The translations under genes and the position numbers were made by a program. Shown in pieces: positions 4,148-24,536 of a stretch of DNA of 25,018 nucleotides. Below the pieces are notes generated by a model. That model had not been told where the DNA came from. It saw only the letters and a program-made list of their open reading frames with translations, and did not search any database. This DNA comes from Nitrospira japonica (GTDB lineage Bacteria; Nitrospirota; Thermodesulfovibrionia; Thermodesulfovibrionales; SM23-35): positions 1-25,018 of the forward strand of contig DYFC01000056.1 in the NCBI GenBank assembly GCA_020725385.1, given 5' to 3'. Within the stretch, counting starts at the first letter, position 1, and each line of letters begins with the position of its first letter.

Positions 4148-4612
4148 TTACTCCTCCTTTTTAATTTGATTTAAAGCCTTAAATATTATATCAGAGCTAT
4201 AACCTCTTCTCAGTAACTGATTATATAATCTTCTTTTGGTTTTTTCATTAAGATGAAAGCCGGGGTTTTTGATTTTTTTCAAAAGAAATTGATTTGCTTT
4301 ATCCAAATCTTCATTATCATTATCAATGCATACAGATGTAATTATATTTCTTGGAATTCCTTTTTGTAAAAGGTATCTTCTAACTCCTTCAGAACCCAAT
4401 AATTTTCTTTCAGAAGCATCACGTTTTAATGATTCTGCCAATAAAGAATCATTTATAAAACCAAGTCCCTTTAAATATTCTATTTCCAAAATTATCTCAT
4501 TCTCCGTAAATCCTTTATTTTTAAGTCTTTCTTTAAGTTCTTTTTCACTTCTTGCTCGATAACCGAGAAGCTTTAGAGCATATTGTCTTATTTTATTTTG
4601 AGAATCTTTCAA
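4148..4612 (-). CDS. recX: Regulatory protein RecX
   Basis: ALKLLGYRARSEKELKERL, GFINDS, LLQKGI, LLRRGY motifs; located downstream of recA. Confidence 0.93.
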   Translation of the reverse strand: MKDSQNKIRQYALKLLGYRARSEKELKERLKNKGFTENEIILEIEYLKGLGFINDSLLAESLKRDASERKLLGSEGVRRYLLQKGIPRNIITSVCIDNDNEDLDKANQFLLKKIKNPGFHLNEKTKRRLYNQLLRRGYSSDIIFKALNQIKKEE

Positions 4613-5744
4613 TTTTCATTTCGTCCTTGACATCAGGTTTTTTCTCGAAAGATTCAAGCGCCAGATCACTTGTGGATTGAATACCTTTTACTTTAAGTAC
4701 AAAGTCATCCGGATTTGTTGCTCGTCTTAGAGCTTCCTCGTAAGTTATTAAACCTGATTTATAAAGACTGAAAAGTGATTGATCGAATGTCTGCATGCCA
4801 TAATGAATAGCTCCTTGTTCAATAACATCGGGAATGGTTTTTGTTTTATCAGGATCAAGTATGCAATCTTTTATAGTAGCAGTTGCAATAAGAATTTCTA
4901 CAGCAGGAACCCTACCTTTACCATCGGCTCTTGGTACAAGTCTCATGGAAATAATAGCTTTGAGAACAGATGATAATTGCATTCTAACCTGTTTATGCTG
5001 GTACGGAGGAAATACAGCAATGATTCTATTAACAGTTTCTGTAGCATCAATAGTATGAAGTGTGCTCAAAACAAGATGTCCTGTTTCAGCAGCAACAAGG
5101 GATGTCTGTATGGTTTCAAAGTCTCTCATTTCACCAACAAGAATTACATCAGGGTCCTGCCTTAGAGCCTGCCTTAAGGCTTTGCTGAAAGATTCTGTAT
5201 CGCTGCCTATTTCTCTCTGGTTAACAATGCTTTTTTTATCTCTATGGAGATATTCAATTGGATCTTCGATTGTTATTATATGTTCTGTTCTTGAGGAATT
5301 AATGAGGTCTATCATAGAAGCAAGAGTAGTAGATTTTCCGCTACCGGTTGTTCCTGTAACAAGAATTAAGCCCCTTTGTTCCATAGAAATCTTTTTAATA
5401 ACTTCAGGCAATAACAATTCATCAATAGTTGGTATCCTCATCGAAATAACACGAAATACAAGACCTACTGTACCTCTTTGCATAAATATATTACAGCGGA
5501 ATCTTCCAAGCCCAGGAACACTATATGCAAGATCAATATCATTTTTTCTCTTAAAGACATCTGTTTGGCCAGGAGTCATTACAGAAAGTGCAATTTTTGT
5601 CGCATCTTCATGGGTAAGTTTTTTTTCCGATGTTAAAGGCACAAGTTCTCCATGTATTCTAAGAATCGGCGGAGACCCTACTTTTATATGGAGGTCAGAT
5701 GCTTCTAAAGCATGGGCTTTTCTTAATAGATCATTAATTTCCAT
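4593..5744 (-). CDS. pilT: Type IV pilus retraction ATPase, PilT/PilU family
   Basis: ASDLHIKVG, Walker A GTTGSGKST, TIEDPIE, LRQDPDVILVGEMRD, TGHLVLSTLH, GMQTFDQ. The AIRNLIRE motif is degenerate (TIKDCILD), suggesting a paralog. Confidence 0.92.
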   Translation of the reverse strand: MEINDLLRKAHALEASDLHIKVGSPPILRIHGELVPLTSEKKLTHEDATKIALSVMTPGQTDVFKRKNDIDLAYSVPGLGRFRCNIFMQRGTVGLVFRVISMRIPTIDELLLPEVIKKISMEQRGLILVTGTTGSGKSTTLASMIDLINSSRTEHIITIEDPIEYLHRDKKSIVNQREIGSDTESFSKALRQALRQDPDVILVGEMRDFETIQTSLVAAETGHLVLSTLHTIDATETVNRIIAVFPPYQHKQVRMQLSSVLKAIISMRLVPRADGKGRVPAVEILIATATIKDCILDPDKTKTIPDVIEQGAIHYGMQTFDQSLFSLYKSGLITYEEALRRATNPDDFVLKVKGIQSTSDLALESFEKKPDVKDEMKIERFSK

Positions 5745-5746
5745 TA

Positions 5747-6742
5747 TTACCTCCTGAGATGAAAGGCTTCAATAACCTTGCCTTCTATTTCTTTTGTTAT
5801 TTCAGGATTATTTTTAAGGTATTCCTTAACATTTTCGCGACCCTGTCCGATTCTGTTTCCTCCATAGCTATACCATGCACCTGATTTTTCTATTATACCT
5901 TTTTCAACTCCGAGATCTACTATCTCACCTTCACGTGATATTCCTTCATTAAAATAAATATCAAATTCAGCCTGTTTAAAAGGTGGAGCCACTTTATTCT
6001 TTACTACCTTTACCCTAACACGACCGCCAATAGTATCCTGATTCTCCTTGAGATTTTCTATTCTTCTAATATCAAGCCTCATCGAAGAATAGAACTTAAG
6101 AGCATTACCGCCTGTTGTTGTTTCGGGATTACCAAACATTACACCTATTTTCATTCTTATCTGATTTATGAAAATAACAGTAGTATTTGATTTTGATATT
6201 GCTGCTGTTAGTTTTCTTAGAGCCTGACTCATAAGCCTTGCTTGGAGTCCCGGTAAAGAGTCACCCATTTCACCTTCTATTTCTGCTTTTGGAACAAGTG
6301 CTGCTACAGAGTCAATTGTAATTATATCAATTGCACCGCTTCTTACAAGAACCTCTGCAACCTCAAGAGCCTGTTCTCCTGTATCAGGCTGTGAGACTAA
6401 TAGATCTTCGATTTTAACTCCAAGTTTCTGTGCATAATTAATATCAAGAGCATGTTCTGCGTCAATAAAAGCAGCGTTGCCTCCTGCTTTTTGAGCCTGT
6501 GCTATAGCGCTTAGTGCAAGAGTAGTTTTTCCTGAAGATTCCGGACCATAAATTTCTATTACCCTGCCTCTTGGAAAGCCACCTATACCTGTTGCGATAT
6601 CAAGAGTTAGAGAGCCGGTGGGTATTACCTGTAACCCTTCAGCTACTTCTTGTGAGCCGAGCCGCATTATTGAGCCTTTGCCAAAACTCTTCTCTATCTG
6701 GGAAATAGCCATCTCAAGTGCTTTTACTTTGTCTTTATTCAT
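5747..6742 (-). CDS. recA: Recombinase RecA
   Basis: [54 protein letters not shown]. Confidence 0.99.
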
Positions 6743-7351: not shown

Positions 7352-7814
7352 AAAAAATAAAATAAACCTGCAAGATTAAATTAGTATAAATTCCTGCGAG
7401 AATATCATCCATCATTATTCCAAGTCCGCCATTCAGTTTTTTTTCAACAAATCTTATAGGGAATGGTTTTAGTATATCGAAAAAACGGAATAAAAAAAAG
7501 GCTGATATAAGAATAGCATAATTAACCGGTAGACTAAAAACAGAAATTAAATATCCAAGAAGTTCATCTATTACTATGTGACCGCTATCTTTTTGTCCGA
7601 TTACCCTTTCAGCAATTGTTGAAGATGCTATTCCTATAATTGTAATAAAACATATCAGCAAACCCTGTACATATAAGGAAATATTAAATATCATTAAAAG
7701 TAATACTCCGATAGCACTTGCCCATGTTCCGGGCGCAACAGGTAAATAACCTATAAAACCAAGAGTAGCAATATTTTTAAAAATGATTTCCGATATTTTA
7801 GGGATTTTATTCAT
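7341..7814 (-). CDS. pgpA: Phosphatidylglycerophosphatase A
   Basis: APGTWAS, DSGHIVIDE, FRFFDILKPFPI, GGLGIMMDDILAG. Confidence 0.95.
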   Translation of the reverse strand: MNKIPKISEIIFKNIATLGFIGYLPVAPGTWASAIGVLLLMIFNISLYVQGLLICFITIIGIASSTIAERVIGQKDSGHIVIDELLGYLISVFSLPVNYAILISAFFLFRFFDILKPFPIRFVEKKLNGGLGIMMDDILAGIYTNLILQVYFIFYGY

Positions 7815-8226
7815 TAATAATTTTGTAAGAATAATGGATTTTTGCCGAACCTTCGAGAGTAGCTTTGACAGAGCAATATTTGTTCATTGAAAGCTCAACG
7901 GCTCTTTTTACTGCTTCTTCAGATATGTTTCTACCTTTTACAATATATTCAATGGTAATTTCAGTAAGTTTTTTAGGGAATTCTTCTGCTTTATTTCCTT
8001 TTACATTTATTTCAAGACCTGTGACATCCTGTTTCTTCTTTCTCAATATAGAAATTACATCCATTCCTGTGCAACCACCGGATGCGATAAGAAGCAATTC
8101 CACAGGTCTTGGTCCTGTATTTTTACCACCAACAGAAGGGTCTGAGTCCATTACAATAGCATGTCCTGAACCGGAGTCACCAACAAATTGCATTTCTTTA
8201 ACCAGTGTGACTTTAGCTTTTAGCAT
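7807..8226 (-). CDS. OsmC/YhfA-family protein
   Basis: GPRPVELLL..GGCTGMDV and KYCSV two-Cys motifs; GGAGG ribosome binding site upstream. Confidence 0.9.
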   Translation of the reverse strand: MLKAKVTLVKEMQFVGDSGSGHAIVMDSDPSVGGKNTGPRPVELLLIASGGCTGMDVISILRKKKQDVTGLEINVKGNKAEEFPKKLTEITIEYIVKGRNISEEAVKRAVELSMNKYCSVKATLEGSAKIHYSYKIINE

Positions 8227-8499: not shown

Positions 8500-9783
8500 T
8501 TAATCATAAACCTTAGAAGCAATTTTAACTGTCAGATCTCCAAGCATGTTAGTGTAGCTACCTAATTCGTTGTCATACCAGCCATAAATTACAGCCTGTG
8601 TTACAGGAATTTCAATAGTGGCCGGTATTTTTCCTGTAAACTGATCAGATGGAATATTATATAATTTAGCTAAATCAAGAGTCATGTTTGCTGTTCTGGT
8701 ATGGGTTTCGCTGCCTTCAATAATAGTAGCCGGTCCATAATGTCCTATTATATCCGAAGATACATTTTGTTCTTCGGTATATTTTATGTAACCTCTTTTT
8801 TCCTTTTCCTCTGCATTTTTGTAAATATCATTCAATAGCTTTCTTGTGATTACAGGAGGTTTGCCTGGTTCTTCACATAAAGCGAGAACAAGAATAATCA
8901 AAGAGCCTGTTGAGATTGGCACTCTTACTGATTCTGCTATAAATCCTATTTGCTGCATTTCAGGGATAACGAGTGCAAGTGTTTTAGCAGCACCTGTTGT
9001 TGTGAGAATGATGTTATTCATGATGCTTCGATTTTTTCTTAAGTCGGTTGCACCTGCGCCTGGCAATCTGTCAAGAACCTGTTGTGTGCCTGTGGCAGCA
9101 TGTACTGTTGCCATTGAAGCGCTGAGTATTTTCTGAGGTCCAAAATAGTCGAGTAAAGGCTTTATCATGTAAGATAAACAGGTTGTTGTACATGAAGCTG
9201 CTGAAATTATATTGTGCTTTGAATGATCATATTTATCATCATTTATTCCAATAACAAGAGTAATTGCATCTTCGGGCATTTTTATACCCTTCTCTTTAAT
9301 CTTGAAAGGTGCTGATACTATAACCTTTTCAGCGCCTGCTTCTATATGACCTCTTGCAGCACCTTCTTTAGAATCAGGCATCGCAGCCGGGTCTTTGAAT
9401 TTACCCGTAGCTTCAACAACGACTTTAACCCCGTGTTCTTTCCATTTTATGTCTTTTGGATTGCGGGCTTCTCTTAAAATTGTCACAGGAATCCCGTCTA
9501 TTGTCATAGTTCCTTTATCTTCGTCAATATTATCAATAATTCTGTTTGCTTTGTAACCATACAGATAGGATTGCAATGAACCGTATGTAGAATCTTTTTC
9601 TATATAAAGGGCTATATCTTTCAGACTTGTTCCAGCTTTTCTGCCTATGTTAACAACTATTTCGGAAAAATATTTTCTTCCAATATGATTCCAGAGACTT
9701 AATTTGCCTATTCTTCCAAAACCATTAATACCGAGAATCTTCTTACTGTTGGATAACATAGATGCTTTGCTCCTTTCTGACAT
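8500..9783 (-). CDS. Divergent long glyceraldehyde-3-phosphate dehydrogenase family protein
   Basis: GINGFGRIG Rossmann motif, DSTYG, VVEATG, catalytic ASCTT.CL, TVH, TTTGAAK, RVP, WYDNE. At 427 aa it is longer than a classic GAPDH (~335 aa). Confidence 0.88.
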   Translation of the reverse strand: MSERSKASMLSNSKKILGINGFGRIGKLSLWNHIGRKYFSEIVVNIGRKAGTSLKDIALYIEKDSTYGSLQSYLYGYKANRIIDNIDEDKGTMTIDGIPVTILREARNPKDIKWKEHGVKVVVEATGKFKDPAAMPDSKEGAARGHIEAGAEKVIVSAPFKIKEKGIKMPEDAITLVIGINDDKYDHSKHNIISAASCTTTCLSYMIKPLLDYFGPQKILSASMATVHAATGTQQVLDRLPGAGATDLRKNRSIMNNIILTTTGAAKTLALVIPEMQQIGFIAESVRVPISTGSLIILVLALCEEPGKPPVITRKLLNDIYKNAEEKEKRGYIKYTEEQNVSSDIIGHYGPATIIEGSETHTRTANMTLDLAKLYNIPSDQFTGKIPATIEIPVTQAVIYGWYDNELGSYTNMLGDLTVKIASKVYD

Positions 9784-9820
9784 ATTTTCACCCCTTTTAA
9801 ATTATTTTAATAATGATACA

Positions 9821-9849
9821 ATTATAACTCTAAAAAACATATCTGTCCA
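9821..9849 (-). promoter_or_regulatory. Sigma70-type promoter for the GAPDH-like gene
   Basis: Minus strand TGGACA (9849-9844), 17-bp spacer, TATAAT (9826-9821); AGGGGTG ribosome binding site before the ATG. Confidence 0.6.
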
Positions 9850-9893
9850 AATTATTTTAATTGCATTTTCCGGGTTTAATATAATAATGCTCT

Positions 9894-12800
9894 TTATATT
9901 TTCCCGGAGACTTCTGCCCTGATTTCTTTTGTATTATGAAGCCCTTCGTAAACTGCTCCATTCCGTCCATCAATACTTAGAAAGTCACCTGCGTTGATTG
10001 TCTTTTTATTTAGAATACATTTTTTCTCCTGTTCCAAAACTATGAGATTATTGCAGCCAACTACGCATGTCTTTCCAAGACGATTGGCTATAATAGAAGC
10101 GTGAGAAGTTGAACCTCCCCGTGCAGTCAAAATACCATCTGCAGCAGAAATATGTCTTATATCATCTGGAACAGTATCGGACCTGATAAGTATTAAAGGC
10201 ATATCAGGCTCCTTTTTCCTGAATTCCTGTATTTCGTCGAGGTCAAAGACTACCCTTCCGCTTAAAGCTCCTCCACCAACTCCGATCCCTCTCGATAAAT
10301 AACTGGATGAAAGTTCTTCGGATGGTTCAAAAGCCATGAATGTTTCACGTCTTGTAATAGCCATATCTCTTGTCTGGAGTATAAAAAGCTTTTCAGGGGA
10401 TACTCCTTCAAAAGTGAATTCAATTTCCTGTGCACTCCATCTTTCATTATAAATGAGGTCTTTGGCAATCTTTAGTAGTGCATTATAATTTTCAGGAAAT
10501 TTTTCTTCGAATGAAACTTCCGTGAGTCTTTCCTCGGAAGGTTTTTGTTCATTGGAAATAGGAAGTGTCGTCACAAGTCCTGAAACTATATCTTCACCCT
10601 GAGCACCTGTTGCGTAGTCTCCCCAAAGAACTACTCTATCGCCTGTCTCAAGAGGATTGCGTGTAAAAAGAACTCCTGTTCCCGAGTTTGTATCAAGATT
10701 ACCATATACCATTGCCTGAACTATTACAGCGGTGCCCCAATTTTCTGAGATTCCCATAATTTCACGAAAAGCCTGTGCTTTTTTGGATGACCAGGATTTG
10801 AAAACCTGTTCGATCGCAACAAAAAGCTGCTTGATTGGTTCGTCATATATATGTATTCCATTTTCCTCAACAGTTCTTCTGTAAGATAAAGCCAATTCTT
10901 TCATCTGTTCGGGTGAGAATTGTATTTTTTTCAATACATGATATTTGTTTTTATGAAAATTCATTAATGCGTCGAATTTATCTCTTTCCATTCCATAAGA
11001 CATTCCCCAGCATTGCATAAATCTTCTGTAACAATCCCATGCAAACCATGGTTTGCCGGTTTTTCTTATTAGACCTTCCACAATTTCTTCATTCAGACCA
11101 ACATTCAAGAAAGAAATCATCATGCCCGGCATTGAAATAGCGCTTCCGCTTCTAACCGAAACGAGCAAAGGATTTTCTGGATCTCCAAAAAATTTTCCGG
11201 TTTGTCTTTCAAGGACTGAAAGATGTTTTTTTATGCCTTCTTCGAGATGTTCCCTTACATATCTGAATCTATTAATAGCTTTTTCACACCTGAAGACTTC
11301 TGTGGTTATTATGAAACCAGGGGGAACAGGTATTTTCAAAGAAGCGAGTTTAACTAAATTATGACCTTTATTCCCGAGATGTATCCTGTCAAAAGTAACC
11401 TGATTCGGAACATGAATTCCTGACAATGCTTTCTTGGGGTCATAACTCATTAATAAATCGAGTGTCTGGACATCGAGTCCTTCTGCCTGCTCAAAAAGTG
11501 TTTTAAGGATTCTGCTTATGAAATTGTCAAGTTGCTGTAGCCCGAATGAACTTGCTACTATTTCTCTAAGGAATTGTTCCGAGATTTTATTGATGAATTC
11601 TGAGTCAGTTACTGATTTTTCTGTGTGCAGATATTTTGAGAGAATATGTTCGGTCCCGATATTCATTATTATCTGTTTAAGATTGTTCTTATAAATGCTA
11701 CTGTAATATGTATTTAAAATATCCTGTACAGCTTCTGAAAAACCTCTGAATATATCAATATACTGTGAAAAAGAAAAGCGCCTTACTTCAAGCGCAACAG
11801 TGAGAAGTTCAAGATTATTCTCGAATCTGTTTGATGATATTCCATCGATTTGAAGGGCTTTAAAAAACAAACTGGCATATTTCTGTATTTTAAATAATGT
11901 AGCTCTTGTAATAAATTTAAGATTTATTGAGTGAAGTAAGTCTTCAAAAAGAATATTTGCAAGATTTTCAAGCCTGTAACTTATCGAAAGAGCATCAAAT
12001 TTTCTTTCATGATATTTACCATACATAGAAGGCATTCCTGCTGCGATATGTCTTTTACGGAAAATATTCTCAACAGGTTCATATTTTTCAGGAGATAGTA
12101 TTATTTCCTTCAGTTTCTCAAGATAATTCAAAACTGCTTCGAGTCTCTGTGCGATATTTCCTTCATCAAGGATGTTTATCAATGAATCTGTTGCAGGAAG
12201 CCCGAGACTATGTGCATATACGAGTTGTTCTTTAATATCTTTAATATCAAATCTATATTTTTTATGGAGTAACTGATAGAATTTTATCGCGAGGTATGCA
12301 CGTCTTTTTTCTCTATCCGAAACCTCCTTAATATTTTCAACCAGTAGAATTATTTCTTCTTCTGTTAAGTAAAGCAAGTCAGAAATATACTTTATGCCTT
12401 TGCCCATGAATATTTGTTTGAAGATAATATGCAATTCATCATAATATTGTCCCGATGGTTCAAGTCTGTTATAAAGTTCTTCGTAAAGAAAATCTTTCAG
12501 ATTTGTTTTATCTTTTGTAAGCCAGAAATATAATACTGCTTCTATAAAATCAACGACACGAGCACTGCTGTCAACATGACTTTGCTTTCTTAAAAAATGT
12601 ATGAGTTTATCATTTCTATGTGTAAGTTCATCTATTTCTGTTGAAACTTCGCGTAACGGACCTTCAGCTCCGATTTCACTGAAATAAACAGGAAAAAGTT
12701 TTGCTAATTGTTTTATTAAATGATAAACAGGCTTAATATCACTGTTAAGGAGTTTTGTTATATCTTTTTGAAAGATATCAGTGTCACTTATATGCACTCC

Positions 12801-14060
12801 GCCAAGACTTAAATTTATAATAAGTCCTGAGATGAGTTGTTTTGACCATTTTGGATTGTTTTCGATAAGTTCAAGCCATACCCTTATATTTTTCAAATGG
12901 GCTCTGTTAGCTTTGACCTGCCATTCATCCGAGACACCTTTAATATCAGGATACTGAAACCCTAAGGATACAATTTTCTGCAAATACCATTCTACAAGAC
13001 TGCTTATGCCTTTGCTGTATAATGCATTCCCTGTAATCTGTATGCAATATAATGCTGTCTCAGGATATTTCTTAAAGCTTTGCTGGAAAACTTCAAAAAT
13101 TTCTGATAATGCTTCTTTAATCTGGTTAGGTTCACCAAGTCTTACAATATTTGAGATGGTGCGGTTAATTTCCCTCAGTGTGTTTTCATGAATACTGCTT
13201 AACCCCGGAGTGTCCATTATCATCAAAAGATAGATTATTTTAATATTCAAATCCCGAATTACATCACCGGTTAATGATAGTTTTCCTGCTATCTCTTCAT
13301 AAAATCTTGCGATTTGAATGAATCCAGGAAATTTTATGAGTTCTTTTAAACGTACAATTTCATTTTCAATGCTATCAATGGAATTGAGTTCATTTAAAAG
13401 TTCCTGAAGATTAGAATGGGAAATTGGATAAAAAATTTCTTCGAATTTTTTGTGCTTATCCTCTTGAGTCTGAAAATAATTGTTTTCTTTAAGCCAGAGC
13501 AAAGGATCTTTTTGTCTTAGCCAGTAAGAATATGTTTCTCTAAAAAATCTTTTAAGTAATTTATTGAAAGTTGTTAAATCAATCTGGTTAGGTATTTTTT
13601 CAAGAAGAATCTGCCCATGTTTTTTTAATTGATGCTGGTTTTCTATAATAATCAAGAAAAGATTATCCGGAAGCTCAAGCAGTTTTAAAAAACATTCAGA
13701 CAATACAGTTGAATATCTATCTAAATCATTAGCTGTATCCATCAATATTTTTTCAAGATAAACAAGAATATTTTCGATTGCTGAATAATGAATTGAAATA
13801 TCGGTGCTTGATAGAGCATTAAAAAAGAAACTCATTATAGTTTTGGAAACTTCAGGAGCTTTTTCATGCTGGTCATATAGGTAGAAGTTTTTCAAAGCAT
13901 AATTGCGCATACTTTTTAGAACATCAGTAAGTTTAAATTCAGGATTATTTAGGTCATTTATTAAAGATTCAACAGTACTAACAATACCGGGATAATCTTT
14001 TACTACATCCCTAAGAATTTCAAATTCTGAGGATTTTAAAACCATAATATTTTCAGTCAT
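9894..14060 (-). CDS. PPDK-like dikinase: ~890-aa uncharacterised N-terminal region + nucleotide-binding domain + phosphohistidine swivel domain, lacking the pyruvate/PEP-binding barrel
   Basis: LGNKG.NL..L....IPVPPGF begins near aa 895; PLLVSVRSG..ISMPGMM, GTAVIVQAMVYGN, SGTGVLFTRNP, AQGEDIVSG, LFILQTR; GGSTSHASI with His1320. The protein ends 68 aa after the His. Confidence 0.85.
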   Translation of the reverse strand: MTENIMVLKSSEFEILRDVVKDYPGIVSTVESLINDLNNPEFKLTDVLKSMRNYALKNFYLYDQHEKAPEVSKTIMSFFFNALSSTDISIHYSAIENILVYLEKILMDTANDLDRYSTVLSECFLKLLELPDNLFLIIIENQHQLKKHGQILLEKIPNQIDLTTFNKLLKRFFRETYSYWLRQKDPLLWLKENNYFQTQEDKHKKFEEIFYPISHSNLQELLNELNSIDSIENEIVRLKELIKFPGFIQIARFYEEIAGKLSLTGDVIRDLNIKIIYLLMIMDTPGLSSIHENTLREINRTISNIVRLGEPNQIKEALSEIFEVFQQSFKKYPETALYCIQITGNALYSKGISSLVEWYLQKIVSLGFQYPDIKGVSDEWQVKANRAHLKNIRVWLELIENNPKWSKQLISGLIINLSLGGVHISDTDIFQKDITKLLNSDIKPVYHLIKQLAKLFPVYFSEIGAEGPLREVSTEIDELTHRNDKLIHFLRKQSHVDSSARVVDFIEAVLYFWLTKDKTNLKDFLYEELYNRLEPSGQYYDELHIIFKQIFMGKGIKYISDLLYLTEEEIILLVENIKEVSDREKRRAYLAIKFYQLLHKKYRFDIKDIKEQLVYAHSLGLPATDSLINILDEGNIAQRLEAVLNYLEKLKEIILSPEKYEPVENIFRKRHIAAGMPSMYGKYHERKFDALSISYRLENLANILFEDLLHSINLKFITRATLFKIQKYASLFFKALQIDGISSNRFENNLELLTVALEVRRFSFSQYIDIFRGFSEAVQDILNTYYSSIYKNNLKQIIMNIGTEHILSKYLHTEKSVTDSEFINKISEQFLREIVASSFGLQQLDNFISRILKTLFEQAEGLDVQTLDLLMSYDPKKALSGIHVPNQVTFDRIHLGNKGHNLVKLASLKIPVPPGFIITTEVFRCEKAINRFRYVREHLEEGIKKHLSVLERQTGKFFGDPENPLLVSVRSGSAISMPGMMISFLNVGLNEEIVEGLIRKTGKPWFAWDCYRRFMQCWGMSYGMERDKFDALMNFHKNKYHVLKKIQFSPEQMKELALSYRRTVEENGIHIYDEPIKQLFVAIEQVFKSWSSKKAQAFREIMGISENWGTAVIVQAMVYGNLDTNSGTGVLFTRNPLETGDRVVLWGDYATGAQGEDIVSGLVTTLPISNEQKPSEERLTEVSFEEKFPENYNALLKIAKDLIYNERWSAQEIEFTFEGVSPEKLFILQTRDMAITRRETFMAFEPSEELSSSYLSRGIGVGGGALSGRVVFDLDEIQEFRKKEPDMPLILIRSDTVPDDIRHISAADGILTARGGSTSHASIIANRLGKTCVVGCNNLIVLEQEKKCILNKKTINAGDFLSIDGRNGAVYEGLHNTKEIRAEVSGKI

Positions 14061-14078
14061 ATAAACTCCTCCTGTAAC

Positions 14079-14091
14079 ATTATACTATAAT
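14079..14091. promoter_or_regulatory. Back-to-back -10 hexamers (ATTATA-C-TATAAT) in the divergent 64-bp gap
   Basis: A perfect inverted repeat gives TATAAT on each strand, pointing to the dikinase (-) and to queE (+). Confidence 0.45.
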
Positions 14092-14124
14092 AAAATATAT
14101 CGGTAAGAGGAATCTTTAACTTAA

Positions 14125-21907: not shown

Positions 21908-23428
21908 TTATCCTTTCAATTTTTCATAAATTTCTTCAAATTGAGTTGCCCTTTCTTTAAATGCCCGTAAAATATTTGGATCAAAGTGTTCAGGCATTGT
22001 TCTTCCATCTCCCTCTGTAATAATTTTATAGGCGGTTTGATGATCAAATGCAGGTTTGTAAACCCTTGCATTTCTTAATGCGTCGTATTGATCTGCAATA
22101 TTAACAATTCTGCCAGGCAATGGTATTTGTTCTCCCTTTAAGCCATAAGGATAACCACCACCATCCCAGCGTTCATGATGTGATATTGCTATTTCTTTTG
22201 CCATTGTTAGTCTTATATGATCACCAAGTATTATTGAACCATATTCTGTGTGTTTTTTCATTTCATTATATTCTTCGTTTGTTAATTTGCCGGGTTTTTT
22301 TAGAATCAAAGGGTTAATATGAATTTTGCCAACATCATGCATCTGAGCCTGAATGCGAATTAAATTGTTAAAATTTTCTGGCATCCCGAGTTGATTTGAT
22401 ATAATTGATGAATACTCACCAACTCTTATAATGTGATTGCCGGTATCCTCATCATTTGCTTCAGATGCTCTTGCAAGTGCATGAACAGTATATGAAAAAG
22501 CCTCTTCAATTTCTTTTACCTGATTTGAAAGAGATTTTAAAAACAATCCCTGTAAAACAATGCTGTTAAGCACAGCAGTGTCATGATAGCTTACATTACG
22601 ATTGTAATCTATTGCAAATATACATAATGTATTACTTATATAACATACAATATTGGAAGCTTCAATATTAAGTTGTTGAATTCTTTCAACAAATGGAAGT
22701 AATTCACTTTTATTAATCTCTTCTTTATTATAATATTTTAAAGTCGGGATAATATCATTGCTGGAGATTAAATCATTATGTAAGTCAAGATTTAATGGTA
22801 ACCTGATAATTCCTTTAACTCCATATTCATATTGGTACCATTCCCATGTGTTTCTTTCTACGAGGATTCCTACTATTATTGTTTTTGGTTTTGTATCGTT
22901 TGCGTCTCCTTTTCTAATACTATTTTCGACTATTTTATCTATAAAAGAAAAAAAATCATAGTTTAAAGGATTAAATGAAGTTACTAATTGCTCTCCAATT
23001 GAAGTCAAATAATTAATGCTGTTATAAGCATAACGCAGCTTGTCATTAAGTTCTTTCATCTTAAGTAGCATTTTTATTCTCGCGAGAACTTCTAATTGTT
23101 CGAATGGTTTTGATATGAAATCATCTGCTCCTGCCTCAATTCCCTTAATGCGATCTTCTTTAGAATGTAATGCAGTGAGCATAATTACAGGAATATGTCT
23201 ATAAACTTCGTCTTCTTTTAATATTTTGCAAACTTCAAAGCCATTCATTCCGGGCATCATAACATCAAGTAAAATCAGGTCAATATCATCTGAGATTTTT
23301 CCGAGAGCTTCTTTTCCATTCATGGCTTTGATTACTTCATAACCATTGGCTGTAAGCAAAGCTTCGAGTAATTTTAAATTTAAAGCTTCATCGTCAACAC
23401 ATAAAATCTTTGGTTTACCAATTGTCAT
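21908..23428 (-). CDS. Response regulator with HD-GYP (c-di-GMP phosphodiesterase) output domain
   Basis: Receiver motifs [20 protein letters not shown]; ~170-aa central region; HD-GYP motifs [28 protein letters not shown]...R.YK. Confidence 0.93.
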
Positions 23429-24152: not shown

Positions 24153-24536
24153 TTAGTATTCATCTTTAACATCAAGTATCCTCTTAATAATTTTCGGCAA
24201 CTCACGTGTATTAATTGGTTTTGTTATGTAATCATCTGCTCCTGCTTGTAATATCTTTTCTTTGTCACCAACCATAGCAAAAGAAGTTATAGCAACAATC
24301 TTTATTTGTCTTGTATTGGGATCGTTTTTCAGTATTTTTATTGCCTCATAACCGTTCATAACAGGCATTTGAATATCCATTAATATTACATCAGGCGTAT
24401 GAGCTTTAGCTGCATCTATTCCTTCTTTCCCATCTGTAGCTTCAACAATACTGTAACCGTAGAATTTTAAAATATCTTTCATAAGCTTCCGATTTGCTTC
24501 ATTATCTTCAACAATAAGGATTTTTTTAGCCATCAC
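24153..24536 (-). CDS. Single-domain response regulator (CheY/DivK-like)
   Basis: KILIVEDN, ILMDIQMP, AITSFAM.GD, GADDYITKP; AAGGAG ribosome binding site; GTG or ATG start. Confidence 0.95.
   Translation of the reverse strand: MMAKKILIVEDNEANRKLMKDILKFYGYSIVEATDGKEGIDAAKAHTPDVILMDIQMPVMNGYEAIKILKNDPNTRQIKIVAITSFAMVGDKEKILQAGADDYITKPINTRELPKIIKRILDVKDEY

Follow-up and report, generated by a model that had tools for sequence, protein, structure and literature searches.

A barrel-less dikinase with an all-alpha N-terminal region, co-inherited with a long GAPDH, suggests that central sugar metabolism has an undescribed step or point of control

The DNA analysed was contig DYFC01000056.1, positions 1 to 25,018, of the Nitrospira japonica assembly GCA_020725385.1; this whole stretch of 25,018 nt is called the window, and positions refer to it. 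Two genes on its minus strand are the subject of this study. The first, at 9894..14060 (-) with the stop codon included, was defined by its open reading frame and by Pfam and NCBIfam matches, and encodes a 1388-aa dikinase, named DIK, that is derived from pyruvate, phosphate dikinase (PPDK) without the phosphoenolpyruvate (PEP)/pyruvate-binding barrel. After a spacer of 110 nt (9784..9893, -) follows GAPDHL (8500..9783, -), a long-form type I dehydrogenase of 427 aa resembling glyceraldehyde-3-phosphate dehydrogenase (GAPDH). Within DIK, the N-terminal region of aa 1-890 (11391..14060, -) is all-alpha and solenoid-like in an AlphaFold2 model and is presumed to be the acceptor or partner module; its conserved core, aa 330-715 (11916..13073, -), was recognized from alignments and the same modelling. 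The PPDK-type ATP-grasp nucleotide-binding domain spans aa 895-1234 (10359..11378, -), as located with TIGR01828, the PPDK structure 1kbl and the PPDK of the same genome. It is followed by the phosphohistidine (mobile, swivelling) domain at aa 1289-1368 (9957..10196, -; PF00391, E 3.7e-18). The codon of His1320, the presumed phospho-carrier, lies at 10101..10103 (-) in a GGSTSH motif that aligns with GGMTSH of the genome's own PPDK. A preliminary description of the window had reported the 1388-aa frame, a PPDK nucleotide-binding domain from about aa 895 and GGSTSH with His1320 followed by 68 aa, and all of these proved exact by reading frame, Pfam and motif position. Its atypical 427-aa GAPDH, in the same direction and after DIK, was likewise recovered, with both GAPDH Pfam domains present and a TIGR01534 score below the cut-off.

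The catalytic half of DIK was compared with PPDK and its relatives. The only Pfam matches were PPDK_N (PF01326, E 1e-31) and the PEP-utilizers mobile domain named above; the barrel domain PEP-utilizers_C (PF02896) was found by Pfam neither in DIK nor elsewhere on the DIK contig. On the PPDK model TIGR01828, aa 895-1234 aligned to profile positions 18-337 of 865 with 418.5 bits (cut-off 843.45), and the C-terminal 499 aa corresponded to residues 17-518 of the 873-residue Clostridium symbiosum PPDK (1kbl; E 6e-88). Since the latter alignment ends at residue 518, DIK stops where the barrel would begin, the GGSTSH motif itself lying at aa 1315-1320. Alignment of aa 895-1373 to the genome's own PPDK gave 36% identity (186/513) and showed retention of the lysine of LGxKG, of SVRSG, EIEFT and LQTR, and of GGxTSH including the Thr-Ser-His triad. 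By score, the catalytic part was closer to this PPDK, with 290 bits, than to either PEP synthase of the genome (85-89 bits). Models for PEP synthase stayed below their cut-offs (TIGR01418, 87.3 against 739.75 bits; NF005057, 98.5 against 598), and the model for Enzyme I of the phosphotransferase system (PTS), TIGR01417, gave 16.1 bits against 341.7. Judged by these alignments, the catalytic module of DIK is intact in its motifs. In view also of the size of its family and of its gene context, described below, the protein is neither an artefact nor a degenerate PPDK.

The assembly (2.46 Mb, 71 contigs, 96.6% complete) also encodes PPDK at full length, in a 909-aa frame on contig 11, and two PEP synthases of 827 and 807 aa. 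A genome-wide search with PF02896 gave three matches, all of them inside these three proteins on other contigs, and no stand-alone barrel; the absence of a separately encoded barrel, first noted for the window, therefore extends to the whole assembly. The canonical gap and pgk genes are neighbours on contig 58. The proposed check of the genome for canonical ppdK, pgk and gap thus found all three, and DIK and GAPDHL are extra genes rather than sole copies.

The N-terminal region, which had earlier been described as an unassignable stretch of about 890 aa, resisted assignment here as well: aa 1-890 gave no Pfam match of any kind at E<=0.1 and no sequence match in the PDB, where a profile search (alignment A1) returned nothing below E 0.7. 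The AlphaFold2 model of aa 1-890, built from a 62-sequence alignment, was all-alpha with a single beta-hairpin at aa 663-684 and reached a predicted local distance difference test score (pLDDT) of 89.5 and a predicted TM score (pTM) of 0.84. The core of aa 330-715, modelled alone, reached a pLDDT of 94.6. This architecture rules out a permuted pyruvate-binding barrel, the alternative that had been raised beforehand against a different acceptor domain. Foldseek comparison of the 890-aa model with the PDB returned only generic HEAT/karyopherin-like alpha-solenoids with TM <= 0.21, and the core gave 0 matches at E<=1e-3. The best Z values obtained with VIA, 9.8 for the 890-aa model in the wide search (a helix bundle, aa 713-866) and 8.1 over 83 residues for the core, are within the tool's stated noise for helical proteins and do not prove a new fold. 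The ESM Atlas held only unnamed or PPDK-family clusters for this region, with scores <= 0.87. As modelled, the N-terminal region matches no solved fold.

Alignments A2 and A3, with paralogues included, showed H388, D426, P457, G467, R470, D477, R491, K492, H495, H671, S678 and G681 to be invariant, and D428, E466, K669, R670, Y680, Y683 and E685 were nearly invariant when distant paralogues were aligned. The core motifs are DTD, EIGAEGxLR, FLRKQSH and KRHIAAGxPSMYG, the last of which corresponds to the beta-hairpin. In the model, the conserved residues of the N-terminal region, which are charged or polar, are placed on loops, helix ends and the hairpin. We read them as a putative anion, ligand or phosphoryl site and not as a plain docking surface.

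GAPDHL matched both GAPDH Pfam domains (PF00044 and PF02800) above their cut-offs and scored 332 bits on the type I model TIGR01534, for which the cut-off is 367.2. It shares about 39-40% identity with the canonical GAPDHs of the same genomes and, in comparison with these, keeps SCTT (with the catalytic Cys149), TVHA (with His176), TTGAA, VRVP and WYDNE; SCTT and TVHA were invariant in 35 GAPDHL sequences. The equivalents of the phosphate-site residues T179, K/R195 and R231 are also retained, and this residue conservation supports a capacity for the phosphorylating oxidation of glyceraldehyde 3-phosphate. The protein is some 90 residues longer than type I GAPDH by virtue of six insertions that are conserved between Nitrospirota and Thermodesulfobacteriota. 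In place of the Asp with which the second strand of NAD-type enzymes ends, GAPDHL has N-x-G-R, again invariant in the 35 sequences. Such a replacement resembles the anabolic NADP-type GAPDHs, and suggests that GAPDHL uses NADP(H) and hence has an anabolic role. When GAPDHL was co-folded with a single cut of DIK, aa 330-890, both scores were 0.00 (mark 0.32), a result that weighs neither for nor against an interaction. One further GAPDH-containing protein, P0399 (754 aa), has GAPDH fused to the N- and C-terminal domains of RapZ and echoes the rapZ...gap-DIK gene order of Thermosulfurimonas and Desulforhabdus described below.

The distribution of DIK was surveyed with aa 1-890 as the query. Among 7999 candidates scored, 2939 clusters at 90% identity had E<=1e-3. 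The best 120 of these were mostly proteins of 1380-1400 aa with PPDK_N and the mobile domain and, where named, came from Nitrospirota or Thermodesulfovibrionales. When 1.84 billion representatives at 50% identity were scanned exhaustively, 504 matched at E<=1e-3, with 382 still doing so at E<=1e-10 and 202 at E<=1e-30. In contigs representing one genome per species, at least 591 of the 599 pattern-matched stretches were confirmed. Full-length family members measure about 1350-1540 aa. Within the Thermodesulfovibrionales, DIK was found in two families. The best 80 public loci belonged to Nitrospirota and Thermodesulfobacteriota and included the cultured carriers Thermosulfurimonas dismutans, Desulfobulbus elongatus, Desulforhabdus sp. 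TSK and Desulfosediminicola flagellatus. Databases label the relatives 'pyruvate, orthophosphate dikinase' (JGI) or 'PEP/pyruvate-binding domain-containing protein'. Twelve of 13 diverse members that were scanned carried PPDK_N with or without the mobile domain, and the remaining one, the cut-off member P0333, had no domain. The same was seen among the listed homologues with domain annotation, apart from a few short or cut-off matches that had none, and no other catalytic domain was fused to the family among the annotated matches listed. The DIK family is large and under selection.

A paralogue family was also encountered, consisting of barrel-less dikinases of 1450-1490 aa with about 26-30% identity over aa 300-865 and the same invariant core residues. 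Paralogues occur at loci L036-L039 (genomes G025, G019, G022 and G006) and in G003, G124, G170, G175, G183 and G195, and some genomes (G006 and G003) carry both a paralogue and DIK. Their neighbours encode a HAD hydrolase, a Crp-type regulator, a thioredoxin-like DUF255 protein and a pyridine-nucleotide disulfide oxidoreductase.

The linkage of DIK to GAPDH genes, for which a gene-neighbourhood survey had been proposed, was examined at two scales. Within the order of the window, GAPDHL (65-97% identity) directly followed DIK in 9/9 orthologous loci. Among the best 80 public loci, 60 had a complete DIK and at least 1.4 kb of downstream sequence; a long GAPDHL (57-79% identity) started within 600 nt in 40 of these, and inclusion of L050, where the two frames overlap by 4 nt, raised the count to 41/60. 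A canonical-type gap, with about 31-35% identity to GAPDHL, ended within 1.5 kb upstream of DIK in 14 of 65 assessable loci. When only the 52 loci assessable on both sides were considered, 41 had GAPDHL or gap adjacent. The neighbours, identified by Pfam, formed recognizable strings: rpoN-hpf-ptsN-rapZ-EIIA(Man)-GNAT-gap-DIK-GAPDHL-pgk in T. dismutans, ...GNAT-DIK-GAPDHL-gap in Desulforhabdus and glgA-like-gap-DIK in Desulfosediminicola. In D. elongatus and strain B35 (G031 and G033), DIK lies beside the canonical gap, and GAPDHL is located elsewhere, 0.5-0.8 kb from pgk and on the same strand. The gene set that recurs across loci is gap, DIK, GAPDHL and pgk.

Co-occurrence was then counted in three genome samples, with the caveat that related genomes are not independent and that the samples overlap in part. 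In the order sample of 31 genomes, 18 carried both a DIK orthologue and GAPDHL and 13 carried neither, with no genome having one gene alone; a canonical GAPDH, with about 36-42% identity to GAPDHL, was kept in all 31. The phylum sample, 121 genomes drawn evenly from the phylum of the window, comprised 9 with both, 111 with neither, none with DIK alone and 1 (G157) with GAPDHL alone; the nine DIK carriers were the genome of the window and 8/8 genomes of one genus. In the class that holds D. elongatus (Thermodesulfobacteriota), 60 of 61 sampled genomes had both genes and 1 had DIK only, with none having neither or GAPDHL alone, so that a DIK orthologue was present in 61/61; here the two genes are mostly unlinked on the chromosome. 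The exception in the phylum sample, G157 (C57:10890-12077), has a GAPDHL orthologue of 64% identity with an in-frame TGA and no DIK match; the TGA may be a recoded codon, an error of sequencing or a sign that the gene has been decaying since DIK was lost. In G002 (C15:27040-35712; 81% complete), the phosphorylase, DIK and GAPDHL genes are all in frame-shifted pieces with stops. Decay into pseudogenes was considered for this genome and set aside, the neighbouring phosphorylase being likewise fragmented, which probably indicates poor assembly quality. Co-inheritance of DIK and GAPDHL is seen in both phyla and persists through several gains or losses of the genes. The objection foreseen beforehand, that the two genes might not be linked in other genomes, does not apply.

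Taken together, DIK and its extra GAPDH suggest that a step or a point of control in central sugar metabolism has so far gone undescribed. We consider it likely that DIK is an active PPDK-derived phosphotransferase that is functionally coupled to GAPDH. As to what it phosphorylates, gene context makes 3-phosphoglycerate the most economical acceptor. We tentatively propose that DIK is a dikinase that reversibly converts 3-phosphoglycerate to 1,3-bisphosphoglycerate, in partnership with an NADP-type GAPDH. In this scheme, the ATP-grasp domain would load the beta-phosphate of ATP onto His1320, and since the catalytic domain is closest to PPDK, the loading reaction would probably be ATP + Pi -> AMP + pyrophosphate (PPi) and reversible. 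The His domain would then swing to the all-alpha N-terminal region, where a glycine-rich loop and the invariant residues (His, Asp, Arg, Lys and Ser) would line a pocket for a small anionic acceptor. Transfer to the carboxylate of 3-phosphoglycerate would give 1,3-bisphosphoglycerate, which GAPDHL, probably with NADPH, would reduce to glyceraldehyde 3-phosphate. In the reverse direction, 1,3-bisphosphoglycerate made by GAPDHL would drive the regeneration of ATP from AMP and PPi. The two proteins would form a route of high driving force through the steps of phosphoglycerate kinase (PGK) and GAPDH, alongside PGK itself.

The proposed chemistry has parallels. Pairs of a kinase and a GAPDH-like reductase that follow the same logic are ProB/ProA, Ask/Asd and ArgB/ArgC, and succinyl-CoA synthetase is a known case of phosphate passing between phosphohistidine and an acyl phosphate, which makes the DIK reaction plausible. 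The PGK step is uphill in the gluconeogenic direction. From standard free energies, we estimate that a 3-phosphoglycerate dikinase would lie close to equilibrium in the absence of pyrophosphatase, whereas with pyrophosphatase present it would be driven strongly towards gluconeogenesis. Most carriers are sulfate reducers or sulfur disproportionators, organisms that produce AMP and PPi, and to these a dikinase would be an attractive fit. For the full reading, 3-phosphoglycerate + ATP (+ Pi) <-> 1,3-bisphosphoglycerate + AMP (+ PPi) catalysed with a new-fold domain, the labile product being handed to a dedicated NADP-type GAPDH in a second, dikinase-driven PGK/GAPDH route, we estimate a probability of roughly one in four.

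Several observations weigh against DIK as a 3-phosphoglycerate dikinase. PGK was present in the genome of the window and in 5/5 other DIK-bearing genomes checked, which leaves no pathway gap to fill. Replacement of PGK by DIK was therefore rejected, and the earlier suggestion of an ATP-to-AMP-driven substitute for PGK did not hold: with PGK in 6/6 genomes, and pgk once in the same gene string, any 3-phosphoglycerate dikinase would act beside PGK and not replace it. No GAPDH gene was adjacent in 11 of the 52 loci assessable on both sides. The paralogue loci (about 29% identity over aa 342-860) were without a GAPDH neighbour in 4/4 cases despite the same invariant core, and a paralogue in the absence of GAPDHL was found in 3 genomes of the order sample and 6 of the phylum sample; with its core common to these GAPDH-less paralogues, the core chemistry of DIK may not be specific to triose phosphates. 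Free 1,3-bisphosphoglycerate would need only a canonical GAPDH, and the strict tie to GAPDHL fits a protein-protein relation at least as well. The NADP(H) preference of GAPDHL is itself read from sequence. The overall HEAT/solenoid-like shape of the N-terminal region is typical of protein-binding scaffolds. Lastly, an N-terminal hemerythrin (HHE cation-binding) domain is added in two of the 13 scanned members, P0274 (1540 aa) and P0284 (1455 aa), and was the sole further domain detected among the 13. These fusions suggest that DIK is controlled by O2, redox state or iron in some lineages and, together with the report of VadK as an autokinase (see below), they point towards regulation.

The last of these points lead to an alternative in which DIK is a phosphohistidine regulator. 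It would autophosphorylate on His1320, bind GAPDHL, and perhaps canonical GAPDH, through its solenoid-like N-terminal region and phosphorylate or tune the enzyme according to energy charge, PPi or redox state. A precedent is the barrel-less mycobacterial VadK (Rv1127c), which, according to a preprint, has the PPDK ATP-binding and His domains without the barrel, autophosphorylates on His422, co-purifies with methylcitrate synthase and dehydratase and is reported to be a regulatory autokinase for methylcitrate-cycle enzymes (bioRxiv 10.1101/2025.10.30.685616). The C-terminal module of DIK scored 334.9 bits on NF004531, a PPDK model of 534 positions. The karyopherin-like shape, the hemerythrin-fused variants and the strict co-occurrence with GAPDHL, whose six conserved insertions could be docking sites, are all in keeping with a regulator. 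A docking surface should differ by partner, whereas the charged core residues are common to paralogues that have no GAPDHL partner, and almost 900 conserved residues are a great deal for an adaptor. That the two genes are mostly unlinked in the class of D. elongatus also speaks against it, as does, weakly by the tool's own account, the absence of any DIK-GAPDH fusion among 15 longer GAPDH-containing proteins. Regulation of GAPDH by DIK is the main alternative and a serious one, held only slightly less likely than the 3-phosphoglycerate reading.

The paralogues bear also on a second alternative, that DIK is a dikinase for some other anionic acceptor (a carboxylate, sugar acid, nucleotide or polyphosphate) and that its linkage to GAPDH reflects shared regulation or pathway context. 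In its favour, the same invariant core recurs in paralogues with unrelated neighbours, and 11 of the 52 fully assessable loci are devoid of an adjacent GAPDH gene. PPDK relatives with swapped acceptor domains are also known, glucan water dikinase (GWD) being one. Another is rifampin phosphotransferase (RPH), which is reported to combine an ATP-grasp and a swivelling His domain with a non-barrel acceptor domain and to convert ATP to AMP (PMC4844700). Against this stand the near-perfect co-occurrence with GAPDHL in three genome samples and the insertion of DIK between gap and pgk in T. dismutans, and the searches pointed to no alternative substrate. A different small or polymeric acceptor is regarded as a serious alternative, as likely as the regulator, and 3-phosphoglycerate is retained as the working assignment.

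An alpha-glucan had been named among the candidate acceptors on account of a glycogen phosphorylase gene across the divergent gap. DIK would then be a glucan (glycogen) dikinase, acting in the manner of plant GWD, whose N-terminal region binds the alpha-glucan and whose phosphorylated His1320 modifies glucosyl residues. The phosphorylase does lie across the divergent gap in the window and in 11 of 17 loci of its own family with flanking sequence (L027-L030 and L032 of L027-L034; L040, L041, L043, L044, L046 and L047 of L040-L048), and glycogen-synthase-like genes lie upstream in L113 and L063. The neighbour is conserved only in the window's own family: it is absent at the G028 locus (L035) and at 70 of the 71 loci outside the family (L049-L119), being present only at L056, and adjacency to GAPDH genes is far more frequent. 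Phosphorylases were present in 31/31 relatives irrespective of DIK, with close orthologues even in the DIK-less G010 and in G022, and covariation of DIK with glycogen genes was rejected on these grounds. No carbohydrate-binding module or other Pfam domain was seen in aa 1-890 at E<=0.1. The case for a glucan acceptor is weak and we regard it as improbable. Least credible of all is an ordinary PPDK or PEP synthase with a separate barrel, or an ATP-driven analogue of Enzyme I feeding HPr- or EIIA-type proteins of the nitrogen PTS: the JGI label and the position of the T. dismutans and Desulforhabdus strings after rpoN-hpf-ptsN-rapZ-EIIA(Man) are met by the lack of a stand-alone PEP-utilizers_C domain, by an all-alpha N-terminal region with no barrel, by a full PPDK and two PEP synthases that already cover these functions, and by a search of the genome (96.6% complete) that found neither HPr (PF00381) nor EIIA-Man (PF03610), on which account the Enzyme I analogue was rejected.

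The remaining features of the window were recorded as context. The start codons of DIK and of a gene for a QueE-like radical SAM protein diverge across 64 nt (14061-14124); the best NCBIfam matches of the latter were QueE models, below their cut-offs, and the gene beyond it encodes an alpha-glucan phosphorylase (TIGR02094, 827 bits). The divergent pairing of DIK with the QueE-like gene was seen at 8/8 loci of the window's family and not in G028. On the other side, an OsmC-family (peroxiredoxin-like) gene (7807-8226, -) lies 273 nt after GAPDHL on the same strand and is followed by pgpA and a LigT-like 2'-5' RNA ligase gene, a string kept only in the closest relative, L027. A 383-aa PilT/T2SSE-type ATPase (4593-5744, -) is encoded between recA (5747-6742) and recX (4148-4612) and overlaps recX by 20 nt, and the order recA-ATPase-recX also occurs in the close relative L027. 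Next to alaS, at the left edge, lies the gene for a Cas6-domain protein of 322 aa (141-1109, -). Towards the right end lie genes for a 506-aa response regulator fused to an HD-GYP-type HD domain (21908-23428, -) and for a stand-alone receiver domain (24153-24536, -); similar response regulator-HD genes occur near DIK in several Thermodesulfobacteriota loci, possibly by chance. Scans for promoter-like sites (35, against 28.1 +/- 4.8 in shuffles) and terminator-like sites (5, against 4.2 +/- 2.5) were at chance level and uninformative, and Rfam gave 0 matches in the window. Of 19 sequencing runs returned, 16 contain part of the stretch and none is an RNA dataset.

The glycolysis/gluconeogenesis trunk is thought to be fully mapped, and the family found here to be linked to its genes has no assigned reaction. 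Whether DIK and GAPDHL form a dikinase-driven bypass of PGK, as we tentatively propose, or DIK regulates GAPDH through phosphohistidine, the answer would be new and would matter for how sulfate reducers, sulfur disproportionators and related organisms manage energy and carbon. If the 3-phosphoglycerate assignment is true, such a dikinase would be a core gene of a whole class of Thermodesulfobacteriota, and one suited to sulfate activation, which yields AMP and PPi. The N-terminal region of about 890 aa would in either case be of structural interest, being confidently modelled, unmatched among solved structures and seemingly equipped with an active site. The existence of cultured, non-pathogenic carriers makes the question directly testable. 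A full-text literature search, with supplementary tables outside its reach, found the DIK family nowhere described, and the same held for a phosphoglycerate dikinase and for a PGK that depends on PPi.

Comparison with known systems places both proteins at some distance from their nearest characterized relatives. GAPDHL resembles type I GAPDH (TIGR01534) in its catalytic Cys and His, in TTGAA, in the equivalent of R231 and in the WYDNE end, but differs by its six insertions, N-x-G-R and a score below the model's cut-off. An example of an anabolic NADP-type enzyme among the type I GAPDHs is GapB of B. subtilis. DIK shares with PPDK (EC 2.7.9.1; TIGR01828; 1kbl) the ATP-grasp and swivelling phosphohistidine domains, the catalytic motifs and GGxTSH; PPDK has a C-terminal PEP/pyruvate TIM barrel, whereas DIK has none and carries 890 additional N-terminal residues. 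GWD (EC 2.7.9.4) is a PPDK-family enzyme with N-terminal acceptor-binding modules and no pyruvate barrel. Its modules are starch-binding CBM45 domains and its His domain precedes the nucleotide-binding domain, whereas no carbohydrate-binding domain was detected in aa 1-890 of DIK. RPH (EC 2.7.9.6) and PigC/RedH share with DIK the principle of an ATP-grasp and a His domain on a different acceptor domain. The domain order differs, being ATP-grasp, acceptor and His in RPH, with the acceptor region first in DIK. The RPH model NF041857 gave 35.2 bits on DIK against a cut-off of 999, covering only the ATP-grasp domain (aa 1080-1164), the PigC model gave a weak 36.3 bits against 1300, again in the ATP-grasp domain only, and RPH was not among the fold matches listed by Foldseek and VIA for the N-terminal models. 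VadK, as described, is like DIK in having the PPDK ATP-binding and His domains without the barrel, but at about 50 kDa it has no large extra domain and belongs to the methylcitrate cycle, whereas DIK adds an all-alpha region of 890 aa and is tied to GAPDH genes; this comparison draws on that description and on the NF004531 score, for which DIK stands below the cut-off of 456. RPH, GWD and PigC already show that the catalytic half of PPDK can be combined with another acceptor domain. What sets DIK apart from a routine addition to these is an acceptor domain that has no match among solved folds, a near-perfect tie to a dedicated GAPDH and the status of a core gene in a class.

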